From assembly GCF_055900595.2 (NCBI RefSeq), contig NZ_CM148325.1: a stretch of 64,000 nucleotides of DNA; one strand, written 5' to 3'. The notes under the pieces were generated by a model, which searched no databases, was not told the origin of the DNA, and saw only the letters and a list, made by a program, of their open reading frames with translations. The position numbers and the translations under genes are program-made. Shown one piece after another: positions 3,539 through 61,028 of this stretch (within the stretch, counting starts at the first letter, position 1; every line of letters begins with the position of its first letter).

Positions 3539-3645
3539 ACCGGCTCCTTATCAGAGAATTGTTAGTGTGGCAGCATGTTCACTACAGAACAAGTCGGAAT
3601 AAAAGCTAATAAATATCCTCCGGCATAGCCGGAGGTTTTTCAAAT

Positions 3646-4358
3646 GCGCCTGTAAGGCTCTGTTACCAGCCGCGCCCTAACAGGCGCATACGATCTGACA
3701 TTTGCATTCAACTTCGTTACTTACGGCCCGTAAACGGGCTGCCCGGATATGGAATCGATAACTGCTCCCCCATTTTATCCTCTTCAAGCTGGTGCTTTAT
3801 GTAGTCCTGTATCTTCGCCGTGTTCTTACCCACCGTATCGACATAGTACCCTCGGCACCAGAACTCCCTGTTTCTGTATTTGAATTTCAAATCCCCAAAC
3901 TGCTCGTAAAGCATCAGACTGCTTTTCCCTTTCAGATATCCCATAAAGCCGGATACGCTCATTTTGGGTGGGATTTCCACAAGCATATGGATATGATCTG
4001 CGCAGCACTCTGCTTCCAGAATCCGTACGCTTTTCCACTCACACAGCTTTCTCAAAATACTGCCTATCGCCCTACGCTTCTCTCCGTAAAACGCCAGTCT
4101 TCGGTATTTCGGCGCAAAAACTATGTGATATTTACAGTTCCAGCGGGTGTGCGCTAAGCTCTTTTCGTCCCCCATTGGGACCCCCTTTTGATTTCTTGTT
4201 TGACACTTGCAGTTGCCAGACCGCAAGGTGTTTTAACAAATCAAAAGGGGTTTTAATAACTGGCTCAAAGCTGAAAGCTTTCCGGAACCCCCAGCCTAGC
4301 TGGGGGTTTTCTGTGCACAAGAAAAAAGGCCCGCAAGCGGACCTTTTATAAGGGTGGG
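3646..4358 (-). mobile_element. IS200-type insertion sequence (IS200/IS605 family, tnpA only); boundaries approximate (about +/-40 bp)
   Basis: Intact Y1/HuH transposase ORF, stem-loop sequestering its ribosome-binding site (around 4180..4240), perfect palindrome AACCCCCAGCCTAGCTGGGGGTT at 4284..4306, imperfect hairpins near both ends. The fabF-pabC gap is 830 bp here versus roughly 120 bp as I recall for K-12. Confidence 0.75.
3717..4175 (-). CDS. tnpA: IS200 transposase TnpA (Y1 HuH single-strand transposase)
   Basis: 152 aa from MGDEKSLAHTRWNCKYHIVFAPKYRR, with HIHMLVEIPP HuH motif and catalytic-Tyr region; ORF track begins 17 codons upstream. Confidence 0.9.
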   Translation of the reverse strand: MGDEKSLAHTRWNCKYHIVFAPKYRRLAFYGEKRRAIGSILRKLCEWKSVRILEAECCADHIHMLVEIPPKMSVSGFMGYLKGKSSLMLYEQFGDLKFKYRNREFWCRGYYVDTVGKNTAKIQDYIKHQLEEDKMGEQLSIPYPGSPFTGRK

Positions 4359-13181: not shown

Positions 13182-16100
13182 ATGAAAAGAATGTTAATCA
13201 ACGCAACTCAGCAGGAAGAGTTGCGCGTTGCCCTTGTAGATGGGCAGCGTCTGTATGACCTGGATATCGAAAGTCCAGGGCACGAACAGAAAAAGGCAAA
13301 CATCTACAAAGGTAAAATCACCCGCATTGAACCGAGTCTGGAAGCTGCTTTTGTTGATTACGGCGCTGAACGTCACGGTTTCCTCCCACTTAAAGAAATT
13401 GCCCGCGAATATTTCCCTGCTAACTACAGTGCTCATGGCCGTCCCAACATTAAAGATGTGTTGCGTGAAGGTCAGGAAGTTATTGTTCAGATTGATAAAG
13501 AAGAGCGCGGTAACAAAGGCGCAGCACTGACCACCTTTATCAGCCTGGCAGGTAGCTATCTGGTTCTGATGCCGAACAACCCGCGCGCGGGTGGTATTTC
13601 TCGCCGTATTGAAGGCGACGACCGTACCGAATTAAAAGAAGCACTGGCAAGCCTTGAACTGCCGGAAGGCATGGGGCTTATCGTGCGCACCGCTGGCGTC
13701 GGCAAATCTGCTGAGGCGCTGCAATGGGATTTAAGCTTCCGCCTGAAACACTGGGAAGCTATTAAAAAAGCCGCTGAAAGCCGCCCTGCCCCGTTCCTGA
13801 TCCATCAGGAGAGCAACGTCATCGTTCGCGCATTCCGCGATTACTTACGTCAGGACATCGGCGAAATCCTTATCGATAACCCGAAAGTGCTCGAACTGGC
13901 GCGTCAGCATATCGCTGCATTAGGTCGCCCGGATTTCAGCAGCAAAATCAAGCTGTACACTGGTGAAATTCCGCTGTTCAGCCACTACCAGATCGAGTCG
14001 CAGATCGAGTCCGCCTTCCAGCGTGAAGTCCGTCTGCCGTCTGGTGGTTCTATTGTTATCGACAGCACTGAAGCGTTAACTGCCATTGATATCAACTCCG
14101 CACGCGCAACCCGCGGCGGCGATATCGAAGAAACCGCGTTTAACACCAACCTCGAAGCTGCCGATGAGATTGCTCGTCAGCTGCGCCTGCGTGACCTCGG
14201 CGGCCTGATTGTTATCGACTTCATTGACATGACGCCAGTCCGCCACCAGCGTGCGGTAGAAAACCGTCTGCGTGAAGCGGTGCGTCAGGACCGTGCACGT
14301 ATTCAAATCAGCCATATTTCTCGCTTTGGTCTGCTGGAAATGTCGCGTCAGCGCCTGAGTCCATCGCTGGGTGAGTCCAGCCATCACGTCTGCCCGCGCT
14401 GCTCTGGTACCGGCACCGTGCGTGACAACGAATCCCTGTCGCTCTCTATTCTGCGTCTGATTGAAGAAGAAGCGCTGAAAGAGAACACCCAGGAAGTCCA
14501 TGCCATTGTTCCTGTGCCAATCGCTTCTTACCTGCTGAACGAAAAACGCTCTGCGGTAAATGCCATTGAAACTCGTCAGGACGGCGTGCGCTGTGTGATT
14601 GTGCCAAACGATCAGATGGAAACCCCGCACTACCATGTGCTGCGCGTACGCAAAGGGGAAGAAACCCCAACGTTAAGCTACATGCTGCCGAAACTGCATG
14701 AAGAAGCGATGGCGCTGCCGTCTGAAGAAGAGTTCGCTGAACGTAAGCGTCCGGAACAGCCTGCGCTGGCAACCTTTGCCATGCCGGATGTGCCGCCAGC
14801 GCCAACCCCGGCTGAACCTGCCGCGCCTGTCGTAGCCCCAACGCCTAAAGCAACACCGGCAACACCAGCAGCTTCTGCACAACCGGGGCTGTTGAGTCGC
14901 TTCTTCAGCGCACTGAAAGCGCTTTTCAGCGGTGGTGAAGAAACCAAACCGACCGAGCAACCGGCACCGAAAACTGAAACGAAACCGGAACGTCAACAGG
15001 ACCGCCGTAAGCCACGTCAGAACAACCGTCGTGACCGTAATGAACGCCGCGACACACGTAGCGAACGTAATGAAGGCAGCGATAATCGCGAAGAAAACCG
15101 CCGTAATCGTCGCCAGGCACAGCAGCAGACTGCCGAGACACGTGAAAGCCGTCAGCAGGCTGAGGTAACGGAAAAAGCGCGTACCACCGACGAGCAGCAA
15201 GCGCCGCGTCGTGAACGTAGCCGCCGCCGTAATGATGATAAACGTCAGGCGCAACAAGAAGCGAAAGCGCTGAATGTTGAAGAGCAATCTGTTCAGGAAA
15301 CCGAACAGGAAGAACGTGTACGTCCGGTTCAGCCGCGTCGTAAACAGCGCCAGCTGAATCAGAAGGTGCGTTACGAGCAAAGCGTAGCCGAAGAAACGGT
15401 AGCCGCACCAGTGGTGGAAGAAACTGCCGCTGCCGAAACCATCGTTCAGGAAGTGCCTGCTCCGCGTACAGAACTGGCGAAAGTCCCGCTGCCAGTCGTA
15501 GCGCAAACTGCGCCGGAACAGCAGGAAGAGAACAATGCTGATAACCGTGATAACGGTGGCATGCCGCGTCGCTCTCGCCGCTCGCCTCGTCACCTGCGCG
15601 TAAGTGGTCAGCGTCGTCGTCGCTATCGTGACGAGCGTTACCCGACCCAGTCGCCAATGCCGTTAACCGTAGCGTGCGCGTCTCCGGAACTGGCCTCTGG
15701 CAAAGTCTGGATCCGCTATCCGATTGTACGTCCGCAAGATGTACAGGTTGAAGAGCAGCGCGAACAGGAAGAAGTACAAGTGCAACCGATGGTGACTGAG
15801 GTCCCTGTCGCCGCCGCTGTCGAACCGGTTGTTAGCGCACCGATTGTTGAAGAAGTGGCTGAAGTCGTAGAAGCCCCCGTTCAGGTTACCGAACCGCAAC
15901 CGGAAGTGGTTGAAACGACGCATCCTGAAGTGATTGCCGCCGCGGTAACTGAACAGCCGCAGGTGATTACCGAGTCTGATGTTGCCGTAGCCCAGGAAGT
16001 TGCAGAACACGCAGAACCGGTGGTTGAACCGCAGGAAGAGACGGCTGATATTGAAGAAGTTGCCGAAACTGCTGAGGTTGTGGTTGCTGAGCCTGAAGTT

Positions 16101-16367
16101 GTTGCTCAACCTGCCGCGCCAGTCGTCGCTGAAGTCGCAGCAGAAGTTGAAACGGTAGCTGCGGTTGAACCTGAGGTCACCGTTGAGCATAACCACGCTA
16201 CCGCGCCAATGACGCGTGCTCCGGCTCCGGCATATGTTCCGGAGGCACCGCGTCACAGTGACTGGCAGCGCCCTGCTTTTACCTTCGAAGGTAAAGGTGC
16301 CGCAGGTGGTCATACGGCAACGCATCATGCATCTGCCGCTCCTGCGCGTCCGCAACCTGTTGAGTAA
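13182..16367 (+). CDS. rne: ribonuclease E
   Basis: 1061 aa: S1/catalytic N-terminal half ([30 protein letters not shown]) and low-complexity Arg/Glu/Pro-rich C-terminal scaffold. Confidence 0.98.
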
Positions 16368-16387
16368 TAATTAGCTCAAGTAATCAA

Positions 16388-16415
16388 GCCCTGGTAACTG
16401 CCAGGGCTTTTTTAT
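16388..16415 (+). terminator. rne intrinsic terminator
   Basis: GCCCTGGTAACTGCCAGGGC hairpin followed by TTTTTT. Confidence 0.75.
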
Positions 16416-16551
16416 TTCATCTTTGAATCAACATATTAAATGGCATCCTTGCTAACCAACAATACAAAATAGGCAAAAAAATGCCCGCCCCGGCGATCCC
16501 AGAGCGGGCAGACAAAACATACCCAGTTTCATGATATGTTTTAAAGCGAGC

Positions 16552-17505
16552 TTATTTGTTGAGCTGGAACAGCGACAATCCCTGCATATCTGTAAATGCT
16601 TTATACGATGCCTGCAATGCCGTTTGCTGCATGATGTAAGATGAAATAGTTGCATTCCAGTCCACATCAACCAGATCGCTCATCTGCTGCGTTTGCCCTA
16701 AAGCGCGATCGCTACCTAATGAATCCAGCGACTCCAGTTCGTTCAGCTGCGTGCCTAATTCCGCGCGAACGGTCAGCACATTGTTCAGCGAGTTTTTCAG
16801 TCCGCGGTTGGTTTTATCCAGTGCCGCAGCGGCGGTTTCTTTATCCGCTTCGCTTTCCGCGACCGGCGTTTTCAGGGCTGCGATGGCGCTATCCAGCATG
16901 GCAAAAAGATTGGTTTCAGAAGCGCTACCGTCTGGTTCCGCTACCGCGTTGCTGGTAATACTGTCGAAAATTTTGTCACCCGTGTGCCCTATCACCATCG
17001 AACGCGAAGCATCGACCTGTTGTTTAATACTTTCTGCTCCGCCAACATATTCGCCGTCTGCCTCACTAAACGGCGCAGTTTCTGTTTTATAACCGGCAAA
17101 AATGTAGCGCCCGTTACCATCCGTAGTGTTCGCCAGATTCAGCAACTGGTCACGAATACCCTGGATATCGGTTGCCAACGACGCCCGGTCATCATCACTC
17201 AAGGTGCCATTGCTGGCGTAGACAATTTTTTCCTGAGCATTCTGGATAGCAGTGGTGACCTGGCTAAGCACACTCTCTTCCAGTGACACTTTTTGAGTGG
17301 CGAAAGTACGCGCCAGCGTGTACTGGCTGTTTTGCGCCTGTGCCTGGGAGAGAACAACAGCTTGTGATGCAGCAATGGGATCATCTGAAGGGTTAACGAC
17401 TCGCTTACCCGTCGACATCTGTTCGCCGTACTTCATCCATTCGGCCTGAGAATTGGTGATGCCACGCATGTTTTGCTGGTACATCATCTGGGTACTGAAA
17501 CGCAT
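16552..17505 (-). CDS. flgL: flagellar hook-filament junction protein 2 (HAP3)
   Basis: 317 aa; conserved flg operon position; minus-strand hairpin plus T-run downstream at about 16480..16515. Confidence 0.95.
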   Translation of the reverse strand: MRFSTQMMYQQNMRGITNSQAEWMKYGEQMSTGKRVVNPSDDPIAASQAVVLSQAQAQNSQYTLARTFATQKVSLEESVLSQVTTAIQNAQEKIVYASNGTLSDDDRASLATDIQGIRDQLLNLANTTDGNGRYIFAGYKTETAPFSEADGEYVGGAESIKQQVDASRSMVIGHTGDKIFDSITSNAVAEPDGSASETNLFAMLDSAIAALKTPVAESEADKETAAAALDKTNRGLKNSLNNVLTVRAELGTQLNELESLDSLGSDRALGQTQQMSDLVDVDWNATISSYIMQQTALQASYKAFTDMQGLSLFQLNK

Positions 17506-17516
17506 TTTATCTCCCC

Positions 17517-19160
17517 TTAGCGAATGTTAATCAGCGCATCAAAAATCGCGTTTGCCGTCTGCAGAACCTGCGCATTCGCGAGGTAATACTGCTGAAAACG
17601 TTGCAGATTTCCGTACTCCTCGTCGAGATTGACACCAGAAATCGACTGCTGCTGATTGGAAAGCTGCGTCACCACATTACCTTGCGTGGTGCTACTGGTT
17701 TTCAACGTCGCGGTTTTATTACCGATATCACTCACTAACGAGGCATAAGCGTCGTTAAAGGATTTCGCACCGCCCACCGTTTTACTGTTACTTTGCAGAT
17801 CCAGCAGGGCCTGCCCGTTGCGGTTGTCGCTATCACCCGCATCTTCTTCGCTCGCCATGGCGATTTTCGCTTCGTCAGTGATTAATACATCCATGTTGAC
17901 GATGGCGTCACTTACCGGTTTCAGCGTGAAGCTGTCGTTAGCGGCAGGCGTGCCTGTAAACGTCAACTCCAGACCATCAAATACAACTTTACCGTTGTTA
18001 TCCGGCGTCACCGTAAAAGTGGTGTTGCTGGCAAGGCGGGTGACCTGCCACTGATTATTGTCGAACGAAATTTTGTAATCTGTCGCCAGTACCGCGGAGG
18101 CATCAGTTACCGTTGCACCGATCGAAACGTCACCTTTGTTTTTCGTGTTTTGCAGAACCGCGGGCTTACCGATAGCAAAGAAATCTTCACCGGCATCGCC
18201 GTTAGCATCAAATCCGGCTTTGTGTTGGGTGTTGAAAGCCTCGGCAAATGCCAGCGCCAGTTGTCCGAGCGTATTACGCGTCTGGTCCAGATCCTGAGAA
18301 CGGAATGTCAGAATGCCGCCCAGCGACCCGGTATTCAGTAATTTCTCCGGGATCTCAATATTGCCTGCCGTCCCATCAACATAAGCGACAGTCGTACGAG
18401 AAGGGTCGGCGCTGGAAGGAACTGCCGCAAGTTGCCGCGCCGTACTTCCCTGAACCAGTGAGTAGCCATTGGCCATCGTGATGTTATAAGTGCCACCATC
18501 CTGAACGCTGACTTCTACGCCAACAATCTGGTTTAATTCGCTCACCAGTTGATCGCGTTGATCCAGCAGATTGTTAGGTGACGCCCCTGCCCCCACGCCT
18601 GTCAGGCGGGAGATCTGATCGTTCAGGCTGGCGATTTGTTTAGCGTAATTGTTGATCTGATCAACGCTGGCACCTATCGCGATATTGACCTGTTTGTCCT
18701 GGTCGCGCAGATATTGATCGGTGGTTTTAAACTGATTCACCAACCCTTCTGATTTCCCAATCAGCGCCTGGCGTGCTGCCGGGTCTTCCGCGTTACTTAC
18801 CAGCGTTTGCAGGCTTGTGAAGAAATCCTGCATCTGTGTTGCCAGCGAAGAGGTACTGGTGGAGAGCATATTGTCGATTTTCGACATCTGCTCATAGCGG
18901 GCAGTCAGGCCGCTACTTTGCGTCTGCGCCGCACGTAACTGGTTGGTAATAAAAGCATCATACTCACGCTGCACACCGGAAACGTAGACACCATTGCCAA
19001 CCCAGCCACCCGCGCCCAACGTGCTGTTGGCCTGCGCCATAATAGTGGTTTGGCGGGTATATCCGGCAACGTTATAGCTGGAGATATTATTACTTGCCGT
19101 ATTTAACGCCGCCTGAGCCGCGTTCAGTCCGCTCATGGCGTTATTGATCAAGCTGGACAT
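17517..19160 (-). CDS. flgK: flagellar hook-filament junction protein 1 (HAP1)
   Basis: 547 aa, MSSLINNAMSGLNAAQAALNTASNNISSYNVAGYTRQ N-terminus. Confidence 0.96.
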   Translation of the reverse strand: MSSLINNAMSGLNAAQAALNTASNNISSYNVAGYTRQTTIMAQANSTLGAGGWVGNGVYVSGVQREYDAFITNQLRAAQTQSSGLTARYEQMSKIDNMLSTSTSSLATQMQDFFTSLQTLVSNAEDPAARQALIGKSEGLVNQFKTTDQYLRDQDKQVNIAIGASVDQINNYAKQIASLNDQISRLTGVGAGASPNNLLDQRDQLVSELNQIVGVEVSVQDGGTYNITMANGYSLVQGSTARQLAAVPSSADPSRTTVAYVDGTAGNIEIPEKLLNTGSLGGILTFRSQDLDQTRNTLGQLALAFAEAFNTQHKAGFDANGDAGEDFFAIGKPAVLQNTKNKGDVSIGATVTDASAVLATDYKISFDNNQWQVTRLASNTTFTVTPDNNGKVVFDGLELTFTGTPAANDSFTLKPVSDAIVNMDVLITDEAKIAMASEEDAGDSDNRNGQALLDLQSNSKTVGGAKSFNDAYASLVSDIGNKTATLKTSSTTQGNVVTQLSNQQQSISGVNLDEEYGNLQRFQQYYLANAQVLQTANAIFDALINIR

Positions 19161-19169
19161 GGAGGTTCC

Positions 19170-19215
19170 TTATAAGCCTTCAATTACAGAGTATTATCGG
19201 CAGCGACACGCCGGA
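19170..19215 (-). promoter_or_regulatory. candidate sigma-28 (FliA) class 3 promoter for flgKL
   Basis: Minus strand carries GCCGATAA -10 element (plus-strand 19194..19201) about 35 nt upstream of flgK ATG; -35 match is weak. Confidence 0.45.
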
Positions 19216-19225
19216 CTTGAGTTAT

Positions 19226-20167
19226 TCAGAACAGATTATCAATGTTCATGCTGTAGGTTTTGCTCACCTTGTCGCTTATCGATTTCATCTGCTGAATCAT
19301 GTTGGTGAGTTTTCGGGCATAGTGAGGATCGGTAGCATAGCCCGCGTCCTGTAGGGCCTGCGCCCCCTGCTCCGCACTCGCGGCGGTCGTCACGGCAGCG
19401 TAGCGCGGGTTACGTGTTAATAGCCCAACGTAATCCGACAATGCTTCCAGATACGAGCTGTAGACCCGAAACTTCGCTTTTACTTTCTTCGCTTCGCCAT
19501 TTTCATATTCAGTCGTGGTGATTTCAGTGACTGGCCCTTTCCAGTTGCCAGAGGCTTTGACGCCAAACAGGTTATAGCTCGGCTCGCCGTTTTCACGGCG
19601 GATTTGCCGTTGCCCCCAGCCAGACTCCAGCGCCGCCTGAGCGAGGATCAAATGGTGTGGCACACCACTTTGCTGGCTTGCCAGTTGGGCGGGCAGTGAG
19701 AGTTGCGCGAGGAATGCTTTACTGTCACCTGGCAGCGAATCATCGTAGTTGCGTGGTACGGCCTTTTGCACCAGCTGCGAAAGCGTCTGATTTTGATAAC
19801 GCATCACGGTTTCGAGCGGGAATTTCATCGGTGCTGCTGGCGTGGACTCATCTGGCAACGGTTGTTCTGGCGTCATCTGTTTAACCATCATCTCTGCCAG
19901 CCCCAGGCCTTTGCCCGCCGTCATCTGTTGGGCAATCTGCTGGTCATACATACTGGTGTAGAGGCGAGTGTGCTCGCTGCTGAACAGGCCATCTTTTGGC
20001 AAAGCGTCGCGCATGCTTTTCAGCATCATCTGCACGAACATCCCTTCTACCTGACGGGCCACTGGACGGATATTTGCCGCTGGATCTTCGCCCGCTTTCG
20101 CCTTCAGTTCGTTGAGCGATTGCGCATCCCAGGCCGCACTCGCCAGTAGTTTGCTGTCGCTGATCAT
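19226..20167 (-). CDS. flgJ: flagellar rod-assembly protein and peptidoglycan hydrolase FlgJ
   Basis: ORF track trimmed to [17 protein letters not shown] (313 aa); start overlaps flgI stop. Confidence 0.93.
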   Translation of the reverse strand: MISDSKLLASAAWDAQSLNELKAKAGEDPAANIRPVARQVEGMFVQMMLKSMRDALPKDGLFSSEHTRLYTSMYDQQIAQQMTAGKGLGLAEMMVKQMTPEQPLPDESTPAAPMKFPLETVMRYQNQTLSQLVQKAVPRNYDDSLPGDSKAFLAQLSLPAQLASQQSGVPHHLILAQAALESGWGQRQIRRENGEPSYNLFGVKASGNWKGPVTEITTTEYENGEAKKVKAKFRVYSSYLEALSDYVGLLTRNPRYAAVTTAASAEQGAQALQDAGYATDPHYARKLTNMIQQMKSISDKVSKTYSMNIDNLF

Positions 20168-21267
20168 CAGATAATTTCCAGTTTTGCCCGCAGACATCCC
20201 GCACTTTGCATTGATTGCAAAATAGACATCAGATCCATCGGCGTAGCACCCAGCGCATTGAGCGCGCGCACCACGTTATTGAGGCTGGCACTGGAGCGTA
20301 CGCTTTGCAGCGAACCGCCGCTCTGGCGTAAGTCGATCTGTGTTTGTGGAGTAACCACAGTCTGCCCACCACCAAACGGTGTATCTGGCTGGCTGACATT
20401 GGCCTGGCGATTAACTGTTACTGAGAGATTCCCCTGCGCTACCGCGCAGCTGTCGAGGGTCACTTCGCGATTCATCACCACCGAACCAGTGCGCGAGTTA
20501 ATCACTACTTTAGCGTCCTGCGGGGTGACATTAACCTGCATATTCTGGATATCGGCAAGGAAACGGACCTGGGAACTGTTGCCACTCGGTACGCGCACCT
20601 GAATAGTCCGCGCATCTAACGCGGTGGCGCTGCCATATCCACGCACGCGGTTGATGGTGTCAGCGATTTGCTGCGCCATACTGAAATCTTCGTCGTTAAG
20701 TTGCAAATTAAGGGTATTCCCGACGCCAAATTGGCTGGGCAATTCACGTTCAATAACCGCACCATTGGTGATCCGTCCACCGTTCAGTTGGTTCACCTGA
20801 ACACTGCTACCGCCAGCGGAGGCCCCTGCGCCGCCAACCAGAATATTGCCCTGTGCCAGCGCATACACCTGACTGTCAACGCCCTTAAGCGGTGTCATCA
20901 ATAACGTACCGCCACGCAGACTTTTGGCATTTCCCATGGAAGAAACCACCACGTCAATGGTTTGCCCCTGACGTCCAAACGGTGGAAGTGACGCCGTCAC
21001 CATTACCGCAGCGACGTTTTTTAGCTGCATATTAGTGCCCGTCGGAACGGTAATTCCCAGCTGTGAGAGCATGTTATTAAGCGTTTGTGTGGTAAACGGC
21101 GTCTGAGTTGTCTGGTCACCGGTGCCATCCAGCCCCACCACCAGGCCATAGCCAATCAGTGAGTTTTGCCTTACCCCCTGAACACTGGTGAGATCGCGAA
21201 TACGCTCAGCCTGAGCTGCCGTGATAACCAGTAGAAGAATTAATGCAGAGAGAAATTTAATCACCAC
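20167..21267 (-). CDS. flgI: flagellar P-ring protein
   Basis: 366 aa with signal peptide (M)[19 protein letters not shown]. Confidence 0.95.
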
Positions 21268-21275
21268 AGCCTCAC

Positions 21276-21974
21276 TTACATTGGCGACAGGTTAAGGAAG
21301 AAACGCTGCAACCAGCCCATATTTTGCGCTTCGTTAATGTAGCCATTGCCTACGTATTCAATGCGCGCATCCGCCACCTGAGTAGACGGTACGGTATTAC
21401 TGCCGCTGATGGTGCGAGGATTAACTACACCAGAGAAGCGAATAAATTCGGTACCCTGATTAATGGCGATCTGTTTTTCACCCACCACATGCAGGTTGCC
21501 GTTGACCAGTACCTGGTCAACCGTCACCGTCAACGTGCCGCTAAAGGTATTGCTGGCATTGGCCCCACCTTTTCCGTTGAACGTGTTGCCACCAGAGGCT
21601 TCGACATCGGCACGAGCGTTACCAAACAGCCCCTGCAAATAGCGCGGCACAGTATCAAAGCCAAAATTAGTTTTACCGTCACGGCTGGCATTCGCAGAGG
21701 AGCTTTTGCTGGCGCTGACGTTCTCCTGCAACACGATGGTCAGCGTATCGCCAATATTGCGTGGTCGACGATCTTCAAACAGCGGTTGATAGCCATAGTT
21801 AATCGGCTGAGCAGACTGGAAAATAGAACCGTTGGCGACGGGCGTCGGACCGGGAACCGGTTGTGCACTGGTCGCCCCCTGTACCAGCGGCGTGGAGGGT
21901 ATCCAGGCGCAGCCGGTTAGTGAAAGCACCAACAAGCTGGAAATGGCATAAGTATGCGCAGCGTTTTTTTGCAT
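21276..21974 (-). CDS. flgH: flagellar L-ring lipoprotein
   Basis: Trimmed to [22 protein letters not shown] lipobox start (232 aa). Confidence 0.94.
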
Positions 21975-22026
21975 GGCTATCATCTTCAAAAATCAGTAAA
22001 CCGGTGAATCTGCCACCGGTTATGCC

Positions 22027-22827
<801 letters not shown>

Positions 22828-22851
22828 TTATTGACAAAATGCATATGTCTT

Positions 22852-22890
<39 letters not shown>

Positions 22891-22980
22891 GAGCTCGCGA
22901 AATCAATAAATTGCGATTGCCCCCATAGACCCGATAAACTTGCGCATCGGGCAACTTATTCTTGTCATGTATCCGTTCAA

Positions 22981-23736
22981 TTAACTCATCGACAGCAGTT
23001 GGTTGGCACGGCCTGCGTTATCATCGACGCTGCTGATCACCTTCATCTGCATTTCAAAACGCCGCGCGCTGGCAATCATGTCGCTCATTGCCGCAACGGC
23101 ATTGACGTTACTGCCTTCCAGAACCCCCGACATCACACGTAAGGTTGGATCTGCCTGCAGTACCGGCCCACGCGTAGCCTGGCTTTCTGCGCTTAAACGA
23201 AAAATGCCGTCGTCACCGCGCTGCACTTCGCTGCCCGTGGCTTTCACCAGCTTCAGACGCCCCACTGGCGCGACAGTATTTGCCGGATCGCCAGAATTCA
23301 GCGCCGAGATTGTGCCATCGGCAGCAACAGTGATTTCCGCCCCTTCCGGCACAGCAATTGGCCCCGCCTCGCCGATCACCGGATGCCCCTGAATTGTCAG
23401 TTGCCCGGTGGGATCAACCTGAATGCTGCCATTACGCGTATATCCTTCGCTGCCGTCAGCGGTCTGCACGGCCAGCCAGCCGTCCTGCTGCAACGCGACG
23501 TCCAGCGGGCGCGAGGTGTAATCCATCTTACCGGGCGTCATGTCAGCACCCGGTGTTGACGCCGTAACCAGCGTGCGCGTGGGTAGTGAAAGCCCTTCCA
23601 CCGGCACTGCACGCAAGGCGTTTAACTGTGCGCGAAAACCGGGCGTAGAGGCATTGGCCAGATTACTGGCGGTCACCGCCTGTTGATTCAGCGTCTGGCT
23701 GGCTGCCCCCATCGCGGTATAAATTGCGTGATCCAT
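22981..23736 (-). CDS. flgF: flagellar proximal rod protein
   Basis: 251 aa rod-family protein. Confidence 0.95.
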   Translation of the reverse strand: MDHAIYTAMGAASQTLNQQAVTASNLANASTPGFRAQLNALRAVPVEGLSLPTRTLVTASTPGADMTPGKMDYTSRPLDVALQQDGWLAVQTADGSEGYTRNGSIQVDPTGQLTIQGHPVIGEAGPIAVPEGAEITVAADGTISALNSGDPANTVAPVGRLKLVKATGSEVQRGDDGIFRLSAESQATRGPVLQADPTLRVMSGVLEGSNVNAVAAMSDMIASARRFEMQMKVISSVDDNAGRANQLLSMS

Positions 23737-23755
23737 TGAGCTATCCCGTCAGCGA

Positions 23756-24961
23756 TTAGCGTAAGTTAACCAGCGTGTTGAGGATCTGGTCCTGGGTTTT
23801 GATGGTCTGGGCGTTAGACTGATAGTTACGCTGGGCAACGATCATATTGACCAGTTCTTTGCTGAGATCGACATTGGACGCTTCCAGCGCACCGTTGGTC
23901 AGGGTGCCAAAGTTGCCCGTCCCGGCTGTCCCCAACAGCGCCACGCCAGAAGATTGCGTCGCAGACCAGACGTTGTCGCCTTCGGATGCCAGACCTTCGT
24001 TGTTGGCAAAGTTCGCCAGTACAATCTGCCCCAGCAGTTGGGTTTGTTCGTTGGAATAGTTGCCGACAACCGTACCGTCATCATTGATTTGATAACTCAC
24101 CAGATCGCCCGGTTTATAGCCGTTCTGGGTGGTTGCCACAATGTTGTTAGCACCGGTATTTTGCTGCATGGAGTTGAGGAAGCTCAGGCTAAACGTGGCG
24201 GGATCTGCGCCGTTAATTGCGCCGGTGGTAATATCCTTTGTTGGATCTGAGGTCAGAACGCCATTGGCATTAAACACCAGCGTCGTTGCAGGGTTAGCTG
24301 TGCCTTTTGGATCACTGCTATCCAGGGTGTAAACATCCCAGTTATTATCCCCGGTCTTCACAAAATAAACGCTCATATCATGAGCATTACCCTGACTATC
24401 GAAAACAGTCACCGAACCTTTTTTGTTATAGCTATCCGCATTGCTGGCATCGAATCCTTTAACAGAGGGAAGCGGATCACTGGAATTCAGGTTGATCTGC
24501 ATCGACGCCGTGGTGGTAGTTTTCGCTGCCATCAGGGTATTCGGGATCGAAATATTGGTCGGATTCGCCCCTTGTTGAATAGTCGGCGGCGTACCGGTTG
24601 CCGGATACCCCGTCAGCTGTAATCCTTGCATATTCACCAGGTTACGATTTTCATCGAGCTTAAATTGTCCATTACGGCTGTAAAAAACCGAACCATTGCT
24701 GTCTACCAGACGGAAAAAACCATTCTGGCTGATAGCAACGTCCAGACCTCGCCCGGTGTTGGTGGTCGTGCCATCGGTAAAGTCCTGAGTGATACCGGCA
24801 ACTTTTACCCCCAGTCCCACTTTCGAACCGGCAAACATATCGGCAAAAGAGGCCGTGCCTGATTTAAAGCCGTAGGTGGCGGAGTTGGCGATATTGTTGC
24901 CAATAACATCGAGGTTGGTGGCGGCAGCGTTTAATCCGCTAACCGCTTGAGAAAAGGCCAT
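23756..24961 (-). CDS. flgE: flagellar hook protein
   Basis: 401 aa, MAFSQAVSGLNAAATNLDVIGNNIANSAT. Confidence 0.96.
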   Translation of the reverse strand: MAFSQAVSGLNAAATNLDVIGNNIANSATYGFKSGTASFADMFAGSKVGLGVKVAGITQDFTDGTTTNTGRGLDVAISQNGFFRLVDSNGSVFYSRNGQFKLDENRNLVNMQGLQLTGYPATGTPPTIQQGANPTNISIPNTLMAAKTTTTASMQINLNSSDPLPSVKGFDASNADSYNKKGSVTVFDSQGNAHDMSVYFVKTGDNNWDVYTLDSSDPKGTANPATTLVFNANGVLTSDPTKDITTGAINGADPATFSLSFLNSMQQNTGANNIVATTQNGYKPGDLVSYQINDDGTVVGNYSNEQTQLLGQIVLANFANNEGLASEGDNVWSATQSSGVALLGTAGTGNFGTLTNGALEASNVDLSKELVNMIVAQRNYQSNAQTIKTQDQILNTLVNLR

Positions 24962-24986
24962 GACTGACTCCTGAAATTTGAGGGCT

Positions 24987-25682
24987 TTAAATTATCTGCC
25001 GTACTTCGTCGAGGGTGGTGGTGCCGTAAGTGCCGAGATCCAGCGTATTACCGTTGTTGCCGCGGATCACCCCCTGCACCAGAGCAAACTGCAGCGGCTG
25101 GGCAACCAGTTGTGTACCACCGTTACTGGCGCTAATCGCTACATTGTAAGAACCGTTCGGCGCAGTGCTGCCGTCAGTCAACGTACCGTCCCAGGTGAAA
25201 CTGTGGACTCCGGCAGTCAGTTCACCGATATCAATGGTACGGACAACCGCGCCGTTTTTATCGGTGATGGTGGCCGTAACTTTGTCTGCCGCCTGCTGCA
25301 ACTCAACACCAAACGGCGTGGTCGTGGTCACAGCCCCTTCCTCACTGCCGGTTCCGGCAAGAACTGTGGTGCCGGGGATCATCACACCGTGACCGATCAG
25401 GTTACTGGCCTGTAGCGACTGGCTGTTATCAATCTGTCCGGAAATAGATCCGAGTGTAGTATTGAGTTTTTCTATCCCGCTGACCGTGCTGATTTGCGCC
25501 AATTGCGACGTCAGCTCGTTGTTTTCCATTGGATTGGTCGGGTCCTGGTTTTTCAGCTGCGCCACCAGCAAAGTCAGAAAACTGCTTTGTAAATCTGCGG
25601 CGTTGCTACCCGTGAGCGAGCTACTGCTGGTGGTGCTAACGCCGGTATTTGTCGGATCGGTGGTGGTTACCGCAATGGACAT
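24987..25682 (-). CDS. flgD: flagellar hook capping/scaffold protein
   Basis: 231 aa; conserved position. Confidence 0.95.
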   Translation of the reverse strand: MSIAVTTTDPTNTGVSTTSSSSLTGSNAADLQSSFLTLLVAQLKNQDPTNPMENNELTSQLAQISTVSGIEKLNTTLGSISGQIDNSQSLQASNLIGHGVMIPGTTVLAGTGSEEGAVTTTTPFGVELQQAADKVTATITDKNGAVVRTIDIGELTAGVHSFTWDGTLTDGSTAPNGSYNVAISASNGGTQLVAQPLQFALVQGVIRGNNGNTLDLGTYGTTTLDEVRQII

Positions 25683-25693
25683 AGATTTCTCCT

Positions 25694-26098
25694 TTATTGA
25701 CCAAGCGTAAGGGTTTTCAGCATCATGCTTTTCACCGTGTTGAGCACTTCAACATTGGCCTGATAGCTGCGTGATGCTGACATGGTGTTAACCATCTCGC
25801 CGACAACATCAACGTTTGGCATTTTCACGTAGCCCTTTGCATCCGCCAGCGGATTACCCGGTTCATAAACCAGTTTGTCCGGAGCCTGACTTTCTATAAC
25901 ATCGGCAACCTTTACGCCGCCTGTCGCAGCGCCTGGCGCAGCGTTCACCTGGAATACCACCTGTTTTGCCCGATATGGCTGTCCATCGGGACCGGTCACG
26001 CTATCAGCATTCGCCAGATTACTGGCCGCCACATTCAGGCGCTGGGACTGGGCAGTTAACGCCGACCCGGCGATATCAAAAATGTTCAGCAGTGCCAT
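25694..26098 (-). CDS. flgC: flagellar proximal rod protein
   Basis: 134 aa. Confidence 0.96.
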
Positions 26099-26101
26099 CC
26101 G

Positions 26102-26518
26102 TTAATTTCCGCTCTGTAAAACGTTCATCATGCCTTTGATTTGCCCGCTCAACGCGCTAAGGCTCATCTGGTATTGCAGGCTGTTATCGGCAAACTGAGT
26201 GCGTTCGCGATCCATATCGACGGTATTACCGTCCAGCGAAGGCTGGTCCGGAATACGGTATTGCAGTTCTGCGGTAGGAGGCGTCAGCGCCTGCGCCGGA
26301 ATGTGTTGCGTTGAGGTCATCGTCAGCGCAACCATGCTGGTTTCATCCCGTCCACGCTGCATGACCTTTTTAAGTTCACTGGCAAAATCGATATCGCGTG
26401 CCTGATAACCAGGGGTATCGGCATTGGCGATGTTTGCTGCCAGCACTTCCTGACGCTGGGCGCGCAGATTGAGCGCCTCTTGTTGAAAACGTAAGGCGGC
26501 GTCGAGCTTATCGAGCAT
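26102..26518 (-). CDS. flgB: flagellar proximal rod protein
   Basis: 138 aa. Confidence 0.96.
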
Positions 26519-26672
26519 ATCTCCTCCGCAAGTATCAAAATTCTGCCATCAGCTTAAATGCCTTTACGCGCGCGTTATCGGCGGAATAAACGCAAAATGG
26601 GTCGCTATTTATGCCGTTGATGGTCATTGCGTACAGGTACAATTCACGTTGTAGAAATGGCTGGGAGCGAAA
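26519..26672. promoter_or_regulatory. divergent flgB / flgA class 2 promoter region (FlhDC-dependent, by established knowledge)
   Basis: 154-bp spacer between divergent flgBCDEFGHIJ and flgAMN operons; sites not resolved from sequence. Confidence 0.5.
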
Positions 26673-27332
26673 ATGCTGACAATAAAACGTAGCGTGGCGA
26701 TCATTGCGATACTGTTCAGTCCGTTAAGTACGGCGAGCAATCTCACATCGCAGTTACAAACCTTTTTTAGCGCCCAGCTCGCGGGAGTAAGTGATGAGGT
26801 TCGTGTTTCTATTCGTACATCGCCCCATCTACTTCCGCCGTGCGAGCAACCACTGCTTTCGATAAGCAATAATTCCCGCCTGTGGGGAAATGTGAATGTG
26901 CTGGCACGCTGCGGTAACGACAAACGATATTTGCAAGTCAATGTACAGGCCACAGGAAATTATGTGGTTGCCGCGATGCCCATTGTGCGGGGAGGAAAGC
27001 TGGAAGCTGGCAATGTAAAACTGAAACGCGGCAGGCTGGATACCTTGCCGCCGCGTACTGTGTTGGATATCAATCAACTTATTGATGCCGTTAGCCTGCG
27101 CGATCTATCACCCGAACAACCTATCCAATTAACCCAGTTGCGCCAGGCCTGGCGTGTAAAAGCGGGACAACGCGTCAACGTGATCGCCAGTGGTGATGGG
27201 TTTAGCGCCAACGCTGAAGGTCAGGCGCTGAACAATGCTGCCGTCGCACAGAATGCGCGGGTGCGCATGGTATCGGGACAGGTGGTCAGCGGCGTTGTCG
27301 ATGCAGATGGGAATATTCTTATAAACCTGTAA
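26673..27332 (+). CDS. flgA: flagellar P-ring assembly chaperone
   Basis: 219 aa with signal peptide. Confidence 0.94.
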   Translation: MLTIKRSVAIIAILFSPLSTASNLTSQLQTFFSAQLAGVSDEVRVSIRTSPHLLPPCEQPLLSISNNSRLWGNVNVLARCGNDKRYLQVNVQATGNYVVAAMPIVRGGKLEAGNVKLKRGRLDTLPPRTVLDINQLIDAVSLRDLSPEQPIQLTQLRQAWRVKAGQRVNVIASGDGFSANAEGQALNNAAVAQNARVRMVSGQVVSGVVDADGNILINL

Positions 27333-27337
27333 CCTGT

Positions 27338-27364
27338 TAAAGATTACCCGACCCATGCCGATAA
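27338..27364 (+). promoter_or_regulatory. sigma-28 (FliA) class 3 promoter of flgMN
   Basis: TAAAGATT-N11-GCCGATAA matches the TAAAGTTT-N11-GCCGATAA consensus; about 43 nt upstream of flgM ATG. Confidence 0.75.
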
Positions 27365-27407
27365 ATAAGCAACACATGATAAAAGCGCCCTCAATGAGGA
27401 ATAAACC

Positions 27408-27701
27408 ATGAGTATTGACCGCACTTCACCTCTGAAGCCCGTAAGCACCGTTCAACCGCGTGAAACCACTGACGCGCCGGTAACGAATACCCGGGCGGCA
27501 AAAACAACCGCCGCCACCAGCACCAGTGTGACGTTAAGCGACGCGCAAGCAAAACTAATGCAACCCGGCAGCAGTGATATCAATCTTGAACGTGTCGAAG
27601 CGTTAAAACTGGCGATTCGTAACGGTGAACTAAAAATGGACACCGGCAAAATTGCCGATGCGCTAATCAACGAAGCGCAGCAAGACTTGCAGAGTAACTG
27701 A
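27408..27701 (+). CDS. flgM: anti-sigma-28 factor
   Basis: 97 aa, [24 protein letters not shown]. Confidence 0.96.
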
Positions 27702-27705
27702 TCGT

Positions 27706-28122
27706 ATGACGCGTCTTGCAGAGATCCTCGACCAGATGTCCGCAGTGCTTAACGATCTCAAAACGGTAATGGATCAAGAGCAGCAACATCTCTCAATGGG
27801 GCAGATCAACGGCAGCCAGTTGCAATGGATTACAGAACAAAAAAGCTCACTGCTGGCGACGTTGGATTACCTCGAACAGTTACGCAGAAAAGAACCCAAT
27901 GCAGAAAATAGCGTTGATATTAGTCAACGTTGGCAGGAAATTACGGTGCAAACTCAGCAACTACGTCAAATGAATCAACATAATGGCTGGTTACTGGAAG
28001 GACAGATTGAGCGCAATCAACAGGCGCTGGAAATGTTAAAACCGCATCAGGAACCGACGCTGTACGGGGCGAACGGTCAGACATCAATACCCCATCGCGG
28101 CAGTAAAAAGATTTCGATCTGA
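27706..28122 (+). CDS. flgN: flagellar export chaperone for FlgK/FlgL
   Basis: 138 aa; directly follows flgM. Confidence 0.95.
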   Translation: MTRLAEILDQMSAVLNDLKTVMDQEQQHLSMGQINGSQLQWITEQKSSLLATLDYLEQLRRKEPNAENSVDISQRWQEITVQTQQLRQMNQHNGWLLEGQIERNQQALEMLKPHQEPTLYGANGQTSIPHRGSKKISI

Positions 28123-28132
28123 AGATTATCTC

Positions 28133-28153
28133 CGGCCTGCAGTGCAGGCCGGA
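28133..28153. terminator. hairpin between convergent flgN and murJ (likely bidirectional terminator)
   Basis: Perfect palindrome CCGGCCTGCAGTGCAGGCCGG. Confidence 0.6.
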
Positions 28154-28161
28154 ATGCATTG

Positions 28162-29784
<1,623 letters not shown>

Positions 29785-29806
29785 CTACCGCCAGATGTTA
29801 CAGGGT

Positions 29807-30730
29807 TTATTCACTCATCGCATCGCGCCAGATCTTGTCAACGATACGTTGCGCCAGCACGGCCTGTTCTCCGGCAGTTTGTGGAACTGTCTGATTTTGC
29901 ACGCAATCAATGAAGTGACGCGCACAGCCAACAAATCCACGTTGCTCAAGAGTACTCTGCCAACCTGGAATAGGTTTATGCACCACGCCCTGCCCGCGCT
30001 CCTCACACCATTCGCGCATATCTATAATGTCGATGAGCGCACCGTCAGTCACGGCCTGCACGGCTTCACGCTGACTTCCGGCACGGCGATGCATACAGGT
30101 GGTAATCTGCAAAGGACCGGCCGAAAAATGGTGCTCGGCAAACAGCATTTCGCCCACGTCGTTAGTCAGTAGCATACCGCCATCCAGAGAGGCTTTGCCG
30201 CTCGACAACCACAGCGCGGTATCCACCACATGCAGATAATCATCCAGCAACGTGAAATAAAGGTCGTGTGGCCCGACGCTATTACTACGATGTTTATCCA
30301 TTCTTAGCGAGGCTGCGGTGGCAAGTTGCGTTTTTAACTCACCGTAGAGTGGTGCGAAACGACGGTTAAAACCGACCATCAACGTCAGTTTTTTCCGCGC
30401 CGCCAGTTCAACCAGCCGTTCAGCATCGCGCAGATTTTCTGCCAGCGGTTTATCGACGCAGACATGTACCCCCGCATTGAGTAACGCACTGACCACGTCA
30501 AAGTGGCTGGCGGTGCTGGAATGCACAAAAACAGCGTCACAACAGGCAGCAAGGCTGGATAACGAATCGGCATAAGGAATGCGCCAGCTTTCACAAATTG
30601 GCAGAGCTTTCGCGCGCGTTGGCGACCACGCACCTTGTAACGTCCAGTCAGACGCTGCCGCCAGCACCGGTAACCACGCCTTTTGCGCGATGCCGCCTAA
30701 CCCCACTACGCCGATACGTAATTTTTTCAC
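29807..30730 (-). CDS. yceM: Gfo/Idh/MocA-family oxidoreductase YceM (MviM)
   Basis: Rossmann motif GVVGLGGIAQKA; start assigned to GTG giving (M)KKLRIGVVG (307 aa), just after yceH stop. Confidence 0.85.
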   Translation of the reverse strand: MKKLRIGVVGLGGIAQKAWLPVLAAASDWTLQGAWSPTRAKALPICESWRIPYADSLSSLAACCDAVFVHSSTASHFDVVSALLNAGVHVCVDKPLAENLRDAERLVELAARKKLTLMVGFNRRFAPLYGELKTQLATAASLRMDKHRSNSVGPHDLYFTLLDDYLHVVDTALWLSSGKASLDGGMLLTNDVGEMLFAEHHFSAGPLQITTCMHRRAGSQREAVQAVTDGALIDIIDMREWCEERGQGVVHKPIPGWQSTLEQRGFVGCARHFIDCVQNQTVPQTAGEQAVLAQRIVDKIWRDAMSE

Positions 30731-30731
30731 T

Positions 30732-31974
<1,243 letters not shown>

Positions 31975-32209
31975 TCTATACCTACTCCTTCCCGTAACGT
32001 CTTTAATACGCTGTAAGTATTACTATACCTGCGCAACCAGACCCTGTGAAAAGTCCAGAATGCCATTTTCTGCATTATTCACATATTTGATAAAAACTCT
32101 CTATCAAAGCGACGTTTTGATAAAAAAATATTGTCCCCGAAGTGATGGGAAAAGTCATAGCGGCAATGCAGAATAGAAAGTGCTCATCTTTTATTTCCCG
32201 GGAGGGGAA

Positions 32210-33418
32210 ATGTCCCGCGTGTCGCAGGCGAGGAACCTGGGTAAATATTTCCTGCTCATCGATAATATGCTGGTCGTGCTGGGGTTCTTTGTTGTCTTCC
32301 CGCTGATCTCTATCCGCTTCGTTGATCAAATGGGCTGGGCCGCCGTCATGGTCGGTATTGCCCTCGGCCTACGCCAGTTTATTCAGCAAGGTCTGGGGAT
32401 TTTCGGCGGCGCAATTGCCGACCGCTTTGGTGCCAAACCGATGATTGTCACCGGTATGCTGATGCGTGCCGCCGGATTCGCCACAATGGGTATCGCCCAC
32501 GAACCGTGGCTACTGTGGTTTTCATGCCTGCTTTCGGGACTCGGCGGCACGTTGTTTGATCCTCCGCGTTCGGCGCTGGTGGTGAAACTAATCCGCCCGC
32601 AGCAGCGTGGCCGTTTTTTCTCACTATTAATGATGCAAGACAGCGCTGGTGCTGTCATTGGCGCATTGTTGGGAAGCTGGCTGTTGCAATACGACTTTCG
32701 CCTGGTCTGTGCCACAGGAGCCGTTTTGTTTGTGCTGTGTGCTGCGTTTAATGCCTGGTTGTTACCGGCATGGAAACTCTCCACCGTACGCACGCCCGTT
32801 CGCGAAGGCATGACCCGCGTGATGCGCGACAAGCGTTTTGTCACCTATGTCCTGACGCTGGCGGGTTACTACATGCTGGCTGTACAAGTGATGCTGATGC
32901 TGCCAATTATGGTCAACGACGTCGCGGGCGCGCCGTCTGCCGTTAAATGGATGTATGCCATTGAGGCGTGTCTGTCGTTAACGTTGCTCTACCCTATCGC
33001 CCGCTGGAGTGAAAAACATTTTCGTCTGGAACACCGATTGATGGCTGGGCTATTAATAATGTCATTAAGCATGATGCCAGTGGGTATGGTCAGCGGCCTG
33101 CAACAACTTTTCACTCTGATTTGTCTGTTTTATATCGGGTCGATCATTGCTGAGCCTGCGCGTGAAACCTTAAGTGCTTCGCTGGCAGATGCAAGAGCAC
33201 GCGGCAGCTATATGGGGTTTAGCCGTCTGGGTCTGGCGATTGGCGGCGCGATTGGTTATATCGGTGGTGGCTGGCTATTTGACTTGGGTAAATCAGCGCA
33301 CCAACCAGAGCTTCCGTGGATGATGCTGGGCATTATTGGCATCTTCACTTTCCTTGCGCTGGGTTGGCAGTTTAGCCAGAAACGCACCGCGCGTCGTTTG
33401 CTGGAACGCGACGCCTGA
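32210..33418 (+). CDS. mdtH: MFS multidrug efflux transporter MdtH
   Basis: ORF track trimmed to [21 protein letters not shown] (402 aa). Confidence 0.93.
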
Positions 33419-33481
33419 TTTGATACTCCCCCCTGACTCCTCCATACTGAAAGTGAACTGACAGCCAAATGGAGGAGTCAC

Positions 33482-34129
33482 GTGAAGCTATACATTTACG
33501 ATCACTGCCCTTACTGCCTCAAAGCCCGCATGATTTTCGGCCTGAAAAATATCCCCGTCGAATTACATGTTCTGCTCAATGACGACGCAGAAACACCCAC
33601 CCGGATGGTCGGTCAAAAACAGGTTCCCATTCTGCAAAAAGATGACAGCCGCTATATGCCAGAAAGCATGGACATCGTTCACTATGTCGATAAACTCGAC
33701 GGCAAACCGTTACTGACCGGCAAACGTTCACCTGCCATTGAAGAATGGCTGCGCAAGGTCAACGGCTACGCCAACAAACTGCTGTTACCGCGTTTTGCCA
33801 AATCGGCATTTGATGAGTTTTCTACTCCCGCCGCACGCAAATATTTTGTCGACAAGAAAGAAGCCAGCGCGGGTAATTTTTCCGACCTGCTGGCCCACTC
33901 TGACGGTCTGATTAAGAATATCAGCGATGATTTTCGTGCGCTGGACAAACTTATCGTCAAACCGAACGCCGTGAATGGCGAACTTTCGGAAGACGATATT
34001 CAGCTATTTCCGCTCCTGCGTAATCTGACGCTGGTAGCCGGAATCAACTGGCCAAGCCGCGTTGCTGATTACCGCGATAATATGGCGAAACAGACACAAA
34101 TCAATTTGTTATCATCAATGGCGATTTAA
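33482..34129 (+). CDS. grxB: glutaredoxin 2
   Basis: 215 aa, CPYC active site at residues 9-12; GTG start codon. Confidence 0.95.
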   Translation: MKLYIYDHCPYCLKARMIFGLKNIPVELHVLLNDDAETPTRMVGQKQVPILQKDDSRYMPESMDIVHYVDKLDGKPLLTGKRSPAIEEWLRKVNGYANKLLLPRFAKSAFDEFSTPAARKYFVDKKEASAGNFSDLLAHSDGLIKNISDDFRALDKLIVKPNAVNGELSEDDIQLFPLLRNLTLVAGINWPSRVADYRDNMAKQTQINLLSSMAI

Positions 34130-58715: not shown

Positions 58716-59159
<444 letters not shown>

Positions 59160-59183
59160 TTATCAAAATCATTAAGTTAAGGT

Positions 59184-59244
59184 AGATACACATCTTGTCA
59201 TATGATCAAATGGTTTCGCCAAAAATCAATAATCAGACAACAAA

Positions 59245-59252
<8 letters not shown>
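59184..59252 (-). ncRNA. IS10 RNA-OUT antisense RNA (position inferred from canonical IS10 layout)
   Basis: Canonical IS10 places pOUT transcription from about nt 115 outward to about nt 47; mapped onto this copy by offset from the outside end. Confidence 0.5.

Positions 59253-61028
<1,776 letters not shown>

Follow-up and report, generated by a model that had tools for sequence, protein, structure and literature searches.

Do the flagellar genes flgM and flgK in this stretch of E. coli DNA have promoters of their own for FliA (sigma-28), the sigma factor of the flagellum? The window, by which we mean the whole 64,000-nt stretch that was analyzed, holds the flg cluster in an orientation inverted compared to K-12, while fliA itself does not lie within it. 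Based on the list of open reading frames and on the annotation of a 100%-identical stretch in NZ_CP098223.1, flgL through flgB occupy 16552-26518 on the minus strand and flgA 26673-27332 on the plus strand. The two promoters considered here drive flgM (27408-27701, plus) with flgN (27706-28122, plus), and flgK (17517-19160, minus) with flgL (16552-17505, minus). Our answer is that the two elements upstream of flgM and flgK are almost certainly the E. coli class 3 sigma-28/FliA promoters PflgM (flgMN) and PflgK (flgKL). Both promoters are already known and published, and the finding is an ordinary one: its value is in annotation only, since it shows where FliA can enter the flg cluster at two places, and identifying PflgM and PflgK touches no open question. 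The present analysis established that the motifs are there, what their geometry and statistical strength are, that they are identical to those of K-12 and how far they are conserved across genera. That FliA binds them, that expression depends on fliA and how the feedback works are taken from published work on K-12 and Salmonella; we infer that these hold in this strain too.

The window and its strain background

Over the region around the flgM promoter (26400-28200), the window agrees with strain Z0117EC0005 at 100% of positions and with most other complete genomes at ~95-96%; of the 5426 complete genomes of E. coli, just 12 reach 99% identity or more here. More broadly, the rne-flg-murJ-yceM stretch (window 14000-34000) is 94.6-97% identical to K-12, compared to ~98% for the remainder of the window. 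This stretch is thus a rare, diverged allele, possibly with recombination as its origin.

Two insertions relative to K-12 were also seen. The first, at 3614-4318, lies between fabF and pabC; it is of the IS200/IS605 type, measures ~705 bp and contains an Rfam STnc490 match (4185-4308). Strain Z0117EC0005 has a copy of this element at a different place, near yceK. The second, ~1.33 kb at 59138-60466, has an RNA-OUT match at 59183-59252 that points to IS10.

Two sigma-28 elements in the flg cluster

The consensus for sigma-28 promoters is TAAAGTTT-n11-GCCGATAA, and eight well-characterized promoters of this type include those of flgMN and flgKL (PMC2859248). The initial annotation had proposed a near-consensus sigma-28 promoter 5' of flgM at 27338-27364, and TAAAGATT-N11-GCCGATAA is indeed read exactly there on the plus strand. 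The -35 octamer TAAAGATT (27338-27345) matches the consensus at 7/8 positions and is identical in K-12; the 11-nt spacer ACCCGACCCAT (27346-27356) has two substitutions compared to K-12; and the -10 octamer GCCGATAA (27357-27364) matches at 8/8. The element lies within the 75-bp flgA-flgM spacer, between the flgA stop at 27332 and the flgM ATG at 27408, beginning 5 nt past the stop codon and ending 43 nt from the ATG. A terminator-like hairpin on the minus strand over the promoter (27361-27348) was considered as well; it is most likely due to chance, since its stem bases fall in the spacer that differs in K-12.

The same annotation had pointed to a -10 octamer 5' of flgK at plus-strand 19194-19201, where TTATCGGC is found, i.e. 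GCCGATAA on the minus strand, again with 8/8 matches to consensus. Its description of the -35 as poor is correct insofar as the octamer is mismatched: TCAAGTCC (19220-19213, minus; identical in K-12) agrees with TAAAGTTT at 5/8 positions. Yet it is present at the exact 11-nt spacing, and the flgK -35 is therefore imperfect rather than absent. The intervening spacer GGCGTGTCGCT (19202-19212, minus; 11 nt) has one substitution compared to K-12. The entire flgK promoter lies inside the 65-bp flgJ-flgK spacer, is oriented towards flgK, and ends 33 nt from the flgK ATG.

To score both sites, we used a weight matrix of 28 positions derived from 23 K-12 FliA ChIP-seq sites with a fold-above-threshold >4 (PMC4183435 Table 2), from which the flgM and flgK sites were excluded; the null model consisted of 300 dinucleotide-preserving shuffles of the window. 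The training sites score 9.1-28.3 bits on this matrix. The flgM site, at 27.0 bits, is the top-scoring of 128,000 window positions, while the maximum over the 300 shuffles was 23.07. With 16.6 bits, the flgK site comes fourth in the window.

That the flgK promoter would be weaker than that of flgM, as initially suggested, is thus true of the sequence match (16.6 vs 27.0 bits), but it is refuted for binding in K-12. There, FliA ChIP-seq peaks with exactly these motifs have practically equal scores for flgKL and flgMN (47 and 48; PMC4183435), and in genomic SELEX with reconstituted sigma-28 holoenzyme the flgJ/flgK spacer is the higher of the two at 27.2, with 15.0 for the flgA/flgM spacer (PMC5493296). 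The flgJ/flgK peak is among the strongest in-vitro peaks of the sigma-28 holoenzyme in that study.

Conservation across Enterobacterales

For the comparison across species, flgM loci were gathered by matching a degenerate pattern within the coding sequence of FlgM, taking one genome per species, which yielded at least 120 loci; the choice of locus is independent of the promoter. Among the matches listed, all 104 species whose locus extends far enough upstream carry a site 5' of flgM on the sense strand that scores 16 bits or more (median 22.4 bits), while in the antisense control none of the 104 reaches 16 bits (median 3.4, maximum 14.8). TAAAG-N14-GCCGAT is found 5' of flgM in 104/104 Enterobacterales species among these matches. 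In the 93 distinct sequences among them, TAAAG is 100% and GCCGAT 99-100% conserved, compared to ~0.35-0.74 for the spacer columns and an average of ~0.55 for the flanks.

Thirteen of the loci listed reach as far as flgK, in species ranging from Citrobacter to Pantoea and Erwinia, and all thirteen carry a TCAAGT(T/C)(T/C)-N11-GCCGATAA-like site 5' of flgK that scores 16.1-23.5 bits. The TCAAGT of the -35 is invariant among these 13/13 species, including its non-consensus C, and the -10 reads (G/A)(C/T)CGATAA in all of them, with exact GCCGATAA in 11/13; the spacers vary freely. On a shorter evolutionary scale, a lineage labeled 'E. coli' that is 89.5% identical in this region keeps both box pairs while its spacers differ, and compared to K-12 the boxes of both promoters are unchanged even though the region has diverged by 4-5%, with the substitutions confined to the spacers. 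That the boxes do not change over many genera although the spacers do argues for selection on promoter function. In Salmonella Typhimurium, FliA promoters 5' of key flagellar operons are likewise reported from ChIP-seq to be conserved (bioRxiv 10.1101/188474).

Since the second base of the flgK -35, a C, is invariant in 13/13 species, it could be selected rather than being a tolerated imperfection. It is conceivable, if quite improbable, that this conserved C tunes how strongly or when PflgK fires compared to the other promoters of class 3, or that it is there for a second factor that binds; in the same speculative vein, the 17.6-bit site inside flgD discussed below might be a weak internal promoter.

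Class 2 and class 3 control of flgMN and flgKL

Published data for K-12 tie both operons to FliA. Deletion of fliA lowered the mRNA levels of flgM 6.9-fold, flgN 4.6-fold, flgK 5.5-fold and flgL 4.9-fold (PMC1935009), and overexpression of fliA in an flhD deletion brought flgM and flgK back to wild-type levels or above (PMC4183435). The anti-sigma factor FlgM keeps FliA inactive until FlgM is exported by the hook-basal body (PMC4183435, PMC3861889). The initial annotation had placed both elements in the class 3 tier of the flagellar hierarchy, and this is right in that both are published FliA promoters; neither operon is purely class 3, though. Since transcription from the promoters of flgA and flgB also runs on into them, flgMN and flgKL are under dual class 2/3 control. 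In K-12, an FlhDC ChIP peak lies between flgA and flgB, and read-through from the FlhDC-dependent promoters has been demonstrated (PMC4183435). The corresponding divergent flgB/flgA class 2 (FlhDC-dependent) promoter region in the window is 26519-26672, which we assign from the K-12 FlhDC ChIP data and from an FlhDC-box-like repeat, AACGGCATAAATAGCG...GCGTTTATT.

Carried over to this strain, this established regulatory logic gives the following sequence of events. Early in assembly, flgMN and flgKL would be made solely at the ends of flgAMN and flgB-L, the class 2 transcripts that depend on FlhDC/sigma-70. FliA would be freed when the finished hook-basal body exports FlgM; FliA-RNA polymerase would then recognize the -35 element (TAAAGATT or TCAAGTCC) together with the composite -10 GCCGATAA 11 nt downstream, and fire PflgM and PflgK independently of FlhDC, with transcription from both promoters starting ~8 nt past the -10. 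PflgM would yield more FlgM, a negative feedback tying FliA activity to secretion, and also FlgN, the chaperone that serves FlgK and FlgL in export. PflgK would supply the hook-filament junction proteins FlgK and FlgL as well as the sRNA FlgO from the flgL 3'UTR. Judging from its sequence, the FlgM-FliA feedback and the late supply of FlgK, FlgL, FlgN and FlgO thus appear to be wired in this E. coli lineage as they are in K-12.

The sole real uncertainty, already discussed in print, concerns the share that the class 3 promoters have in expression under any one condition. One might argue that both are real FliA promoters but physiologically minor, with most flgMN and flgKL mRNA coming from class 2 read-through from flgA and flgB, so that the sigma-28 promoters matter only in filament repair, in swarming or when FliA activity is high. 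The K-12 RNA-seq data lend this some weight: for the dual-regulated genes, deletion of fliA had little effect, compared to a more than 100-fold decrease on deletion of flhDC, and RT-PCR spanning flgJ-flgK detects the flgB-L transcript (PMC4183435). In standard growth, the fliA deletion took flgM from 451 to 318 and flgK from 318 to 138, changes that are modest and not significant (PMC4183435); class 2 read-through supplies much of the mRNA there. On the other hand, the 5- to 7-fold drops on fliA deletion seen by microarrays in another condition (PMC1935009), the restoration of flgM and flgK by fliA overexpression without FlhDC (PMC4183435) and the invariance of both boxes across many genera while the spacers drift all speak for a larger role; furthermore, the class 3 flgKL promoter of Salmonella is needed for swarming and for the repair of sheared flagella (cited in PMC4183435). 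We consider such a minor role possible but the less probable reading, and even if correct it would qualify, not replace, the assignment of the two elements as PflgM and PflgK.

The flgK element in the light of chance matches

The octamer GCCGATAA occurs in 10 copies in the window, compared to 2.36 expected from the shuffles, and most copies are intragenic. Apart from the flgM and flgK sites, the remaining 8 copies have scores between -1.6 and 10.9 bits, with no -35 that could be used; 0/8 of them reach a -35 match of 5/8 at 11-nt spacing. The octamer by itself is therefore not diagnostic of a sigma-28 promoter. We reject the extra sigma-28 promoters that its enrichment might suggest, since the other 8 copies have these low scores and lie mostly in coding sequence. 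The lesson for annotation is that perfect GCCGATAA octamers are common in the window and meaningless without a -35 at 11-nt spacing.

A score as good as that of the flgK site is expected ~0.2 times per shuffled window, and at least one such hit was obtained in 18% of the shuffles, while the window itself holds four hits of at least 16.6 bits, compared to the 0.2 expected. Two of these, which score 17.6 bits each and thus slightly above flgK, lie inside flgD (25257-25284, minus) and antisense in pabC (2923-2950, plus). Both are identical in K-12 and absent from the 52 FliA ChIP-seq sites published for K-12 (PMC4183435), and we do not regard them as promoters. Because the flgK score is borderline, it is on its own no proof of function, and the case for PflgK is carried by position, orientation and conservation.

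Could the flgK element then be a fortuitous GCCGATAA next to a poor -35 and no promoter at all, with flgKL expressed solely within the flgB-L transcript? The over-representation of the octamer (mostly for coding reasons), the 0.2 hits expected per shuffled window and the two 17.6-bit, K-12-identical sites missing from the ChIP-seq set would fit such a reading. For K-12, though, published binding has already refuted it, with a ChIP-seq peak of 47 that has the exact motif; the in-vitro sigma-28 holoenzyme peak of 27.2 and the fliA-dependence of flgK and flgL (K-12, PMC1935009) point the same way. Within the window, the element has the correct orientation in a 65-bp spacer at 33 nt from the ATG, and TCAAGT-N13-GCCGATAA is conserved in 13/13 of the species listed with variable spacers, which is why we accept it as a promoter. 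A chance match is in our view hardly credible.

A third perfect GCCGATAA lies 56 nt 5' of the flgB ATG (26575-26582, minus; context 26574-26616) and scores 10.9 bits. It has no sigma-28 -35 (CCCATTTT is found instead), adjoins the FlhDC-box-like inverted repeat described above, and is identical in K-12. As a third sigma-28 promoter it was rejected, both for its missing -35 and for the failure of FliA overexpression to rescue K-12 flgB (PMC4183435); it probably belongs to the class 2 promoter instead.

That copy, at an FlhDC/sigma-70 class 2 promoter that FliA overexpression does not rescue, is also what favors the idea that sigma-70 rather than sigma-28 uses the flgM and flgK elements, for instance with GATAA(A/T) as a -10 hexamer; such a use may apply at flgB, but for the two elements themselves it is extremely unlikely, as neither the flgA-flgM nor the flgJ-flgK spacer contains a sigma-70-like -35/-10 pair, what is conserved upstream, at the spacing of sigma-28, is TAAAG and TCAAGT and not TTGACA, and in-vitro binding of reconstituted sigma-28 holoenzyme is seen at both spacers (K-12, PMC5493296).

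The flgF-flgG spacer (22806-22985, minus) contains a REP-like palindrome, GCCGGATAAGGCGTTTACGCCGCATCCGGC. In K-12, a sigma-28 holoenzyme in-vitro SELEX peak is listed for this spacer (PMC5493296); no sigma-28-like motif above 6 bits was found in the flgF-flgG spacer of the window.

Transcript starts and ends

A published flgM translational fusion runs from +1 to +105 and ends after codon 23 (PMC7549644). The 105 nt thus comprise the 5'UTR and 23 codons, which gives a 5'UTR of 36 nt (27372-27407, plus; identical in K-12) and a deduced class 3 start at 27372. Arithmetic on this construct hence puts the deduced flgM start 8 nt after the -10 octamer, in agreement with the initial expectation of ~7-10 nt. 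The Shine-Dalgarno sequence GAGG is at 27396-27399 (plus). In the loci listed, the distance from the flgM promoter (28-mer) to the start codon is 42 nt in Escherichia vs ~59 nt in most other genera, i.e. ~17 nt shorter; as this distance varies between genera, so does the length of the flgM 5'UTR. By analogy to flgM and from sigma-28 geometry, the class 3 start of flgK is predicted ~7-10 nt past its -10, at 19184-19187 (~19186) on the minus strand, which would correspond to a 5'UTR of ~25 nt.

At the other end of the flgKL transcript, the region 16476-16553 (minus), in the flgL 3'UTR, maps to K-12 flgO with 5 substitutions, two of them in the terminator stem region. FlgO is a sigma-28-dependent sRNA processed out of the flgL mRNA's 3'UTR (PMC10578931). 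This region holds a strong intrinsic terminator with a 12-pair stem followed by a T-run (16510-16482, minus), where the flgKL transcript should end. For flgMN, a GC-rich hairpin, TCCGGCCTGCAGTGCAGGCCGGA, can be read at 28130-28152, in the 39-nt gap between the convergent flgN and murJ genes. A simple terminator scan did not call it, and it has no clear T-run on the plus strand; it is likely the end of the flgMN transcript, and it may act as a bidirectional terminator.

Comparison with known sigma-28 promoters

Set against the sigma-28 consensus TAAAGTTT-n11-GCCGATAA, both sites have a -10 without mismatch and the standard spacing of 11 nt, and the departures at flgK are in its -35, where position 2 is C and positions 7-8 are CC. 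The closest relatives are the two K-12 promoters. The K-12 flgMN promoter, with its FliA site TAAAGATTACCCGTCCCTTGCCGATAAA (PMC4183435 Table 2), has the same locus, orientation, octamers and 11-nt spacer length as the window, and the whole 5'UTR to the ATG is identical; its spacer ACCCGTCCCTT differs from ACCCGACCCAT by two substitutions, and it scores 27.2 bits vs 27.0 in the window. The K-12 flgKL promoter (FliA site TCAAGTCCGGCGGGTCGCTGCCGATAAT, PMC4183435 Table 2) likewise shares locus, both octamers and spacing as well as all bases between the -10 and the ATG, and differs by one spacer substitution (G to T), with 16.6 bits in the window vs 16.4 in K-12. In Salmonella and other Enterobacterales, the boxes of PflgM and PflgK are shared with the window, while the spacer sequences differ freely.
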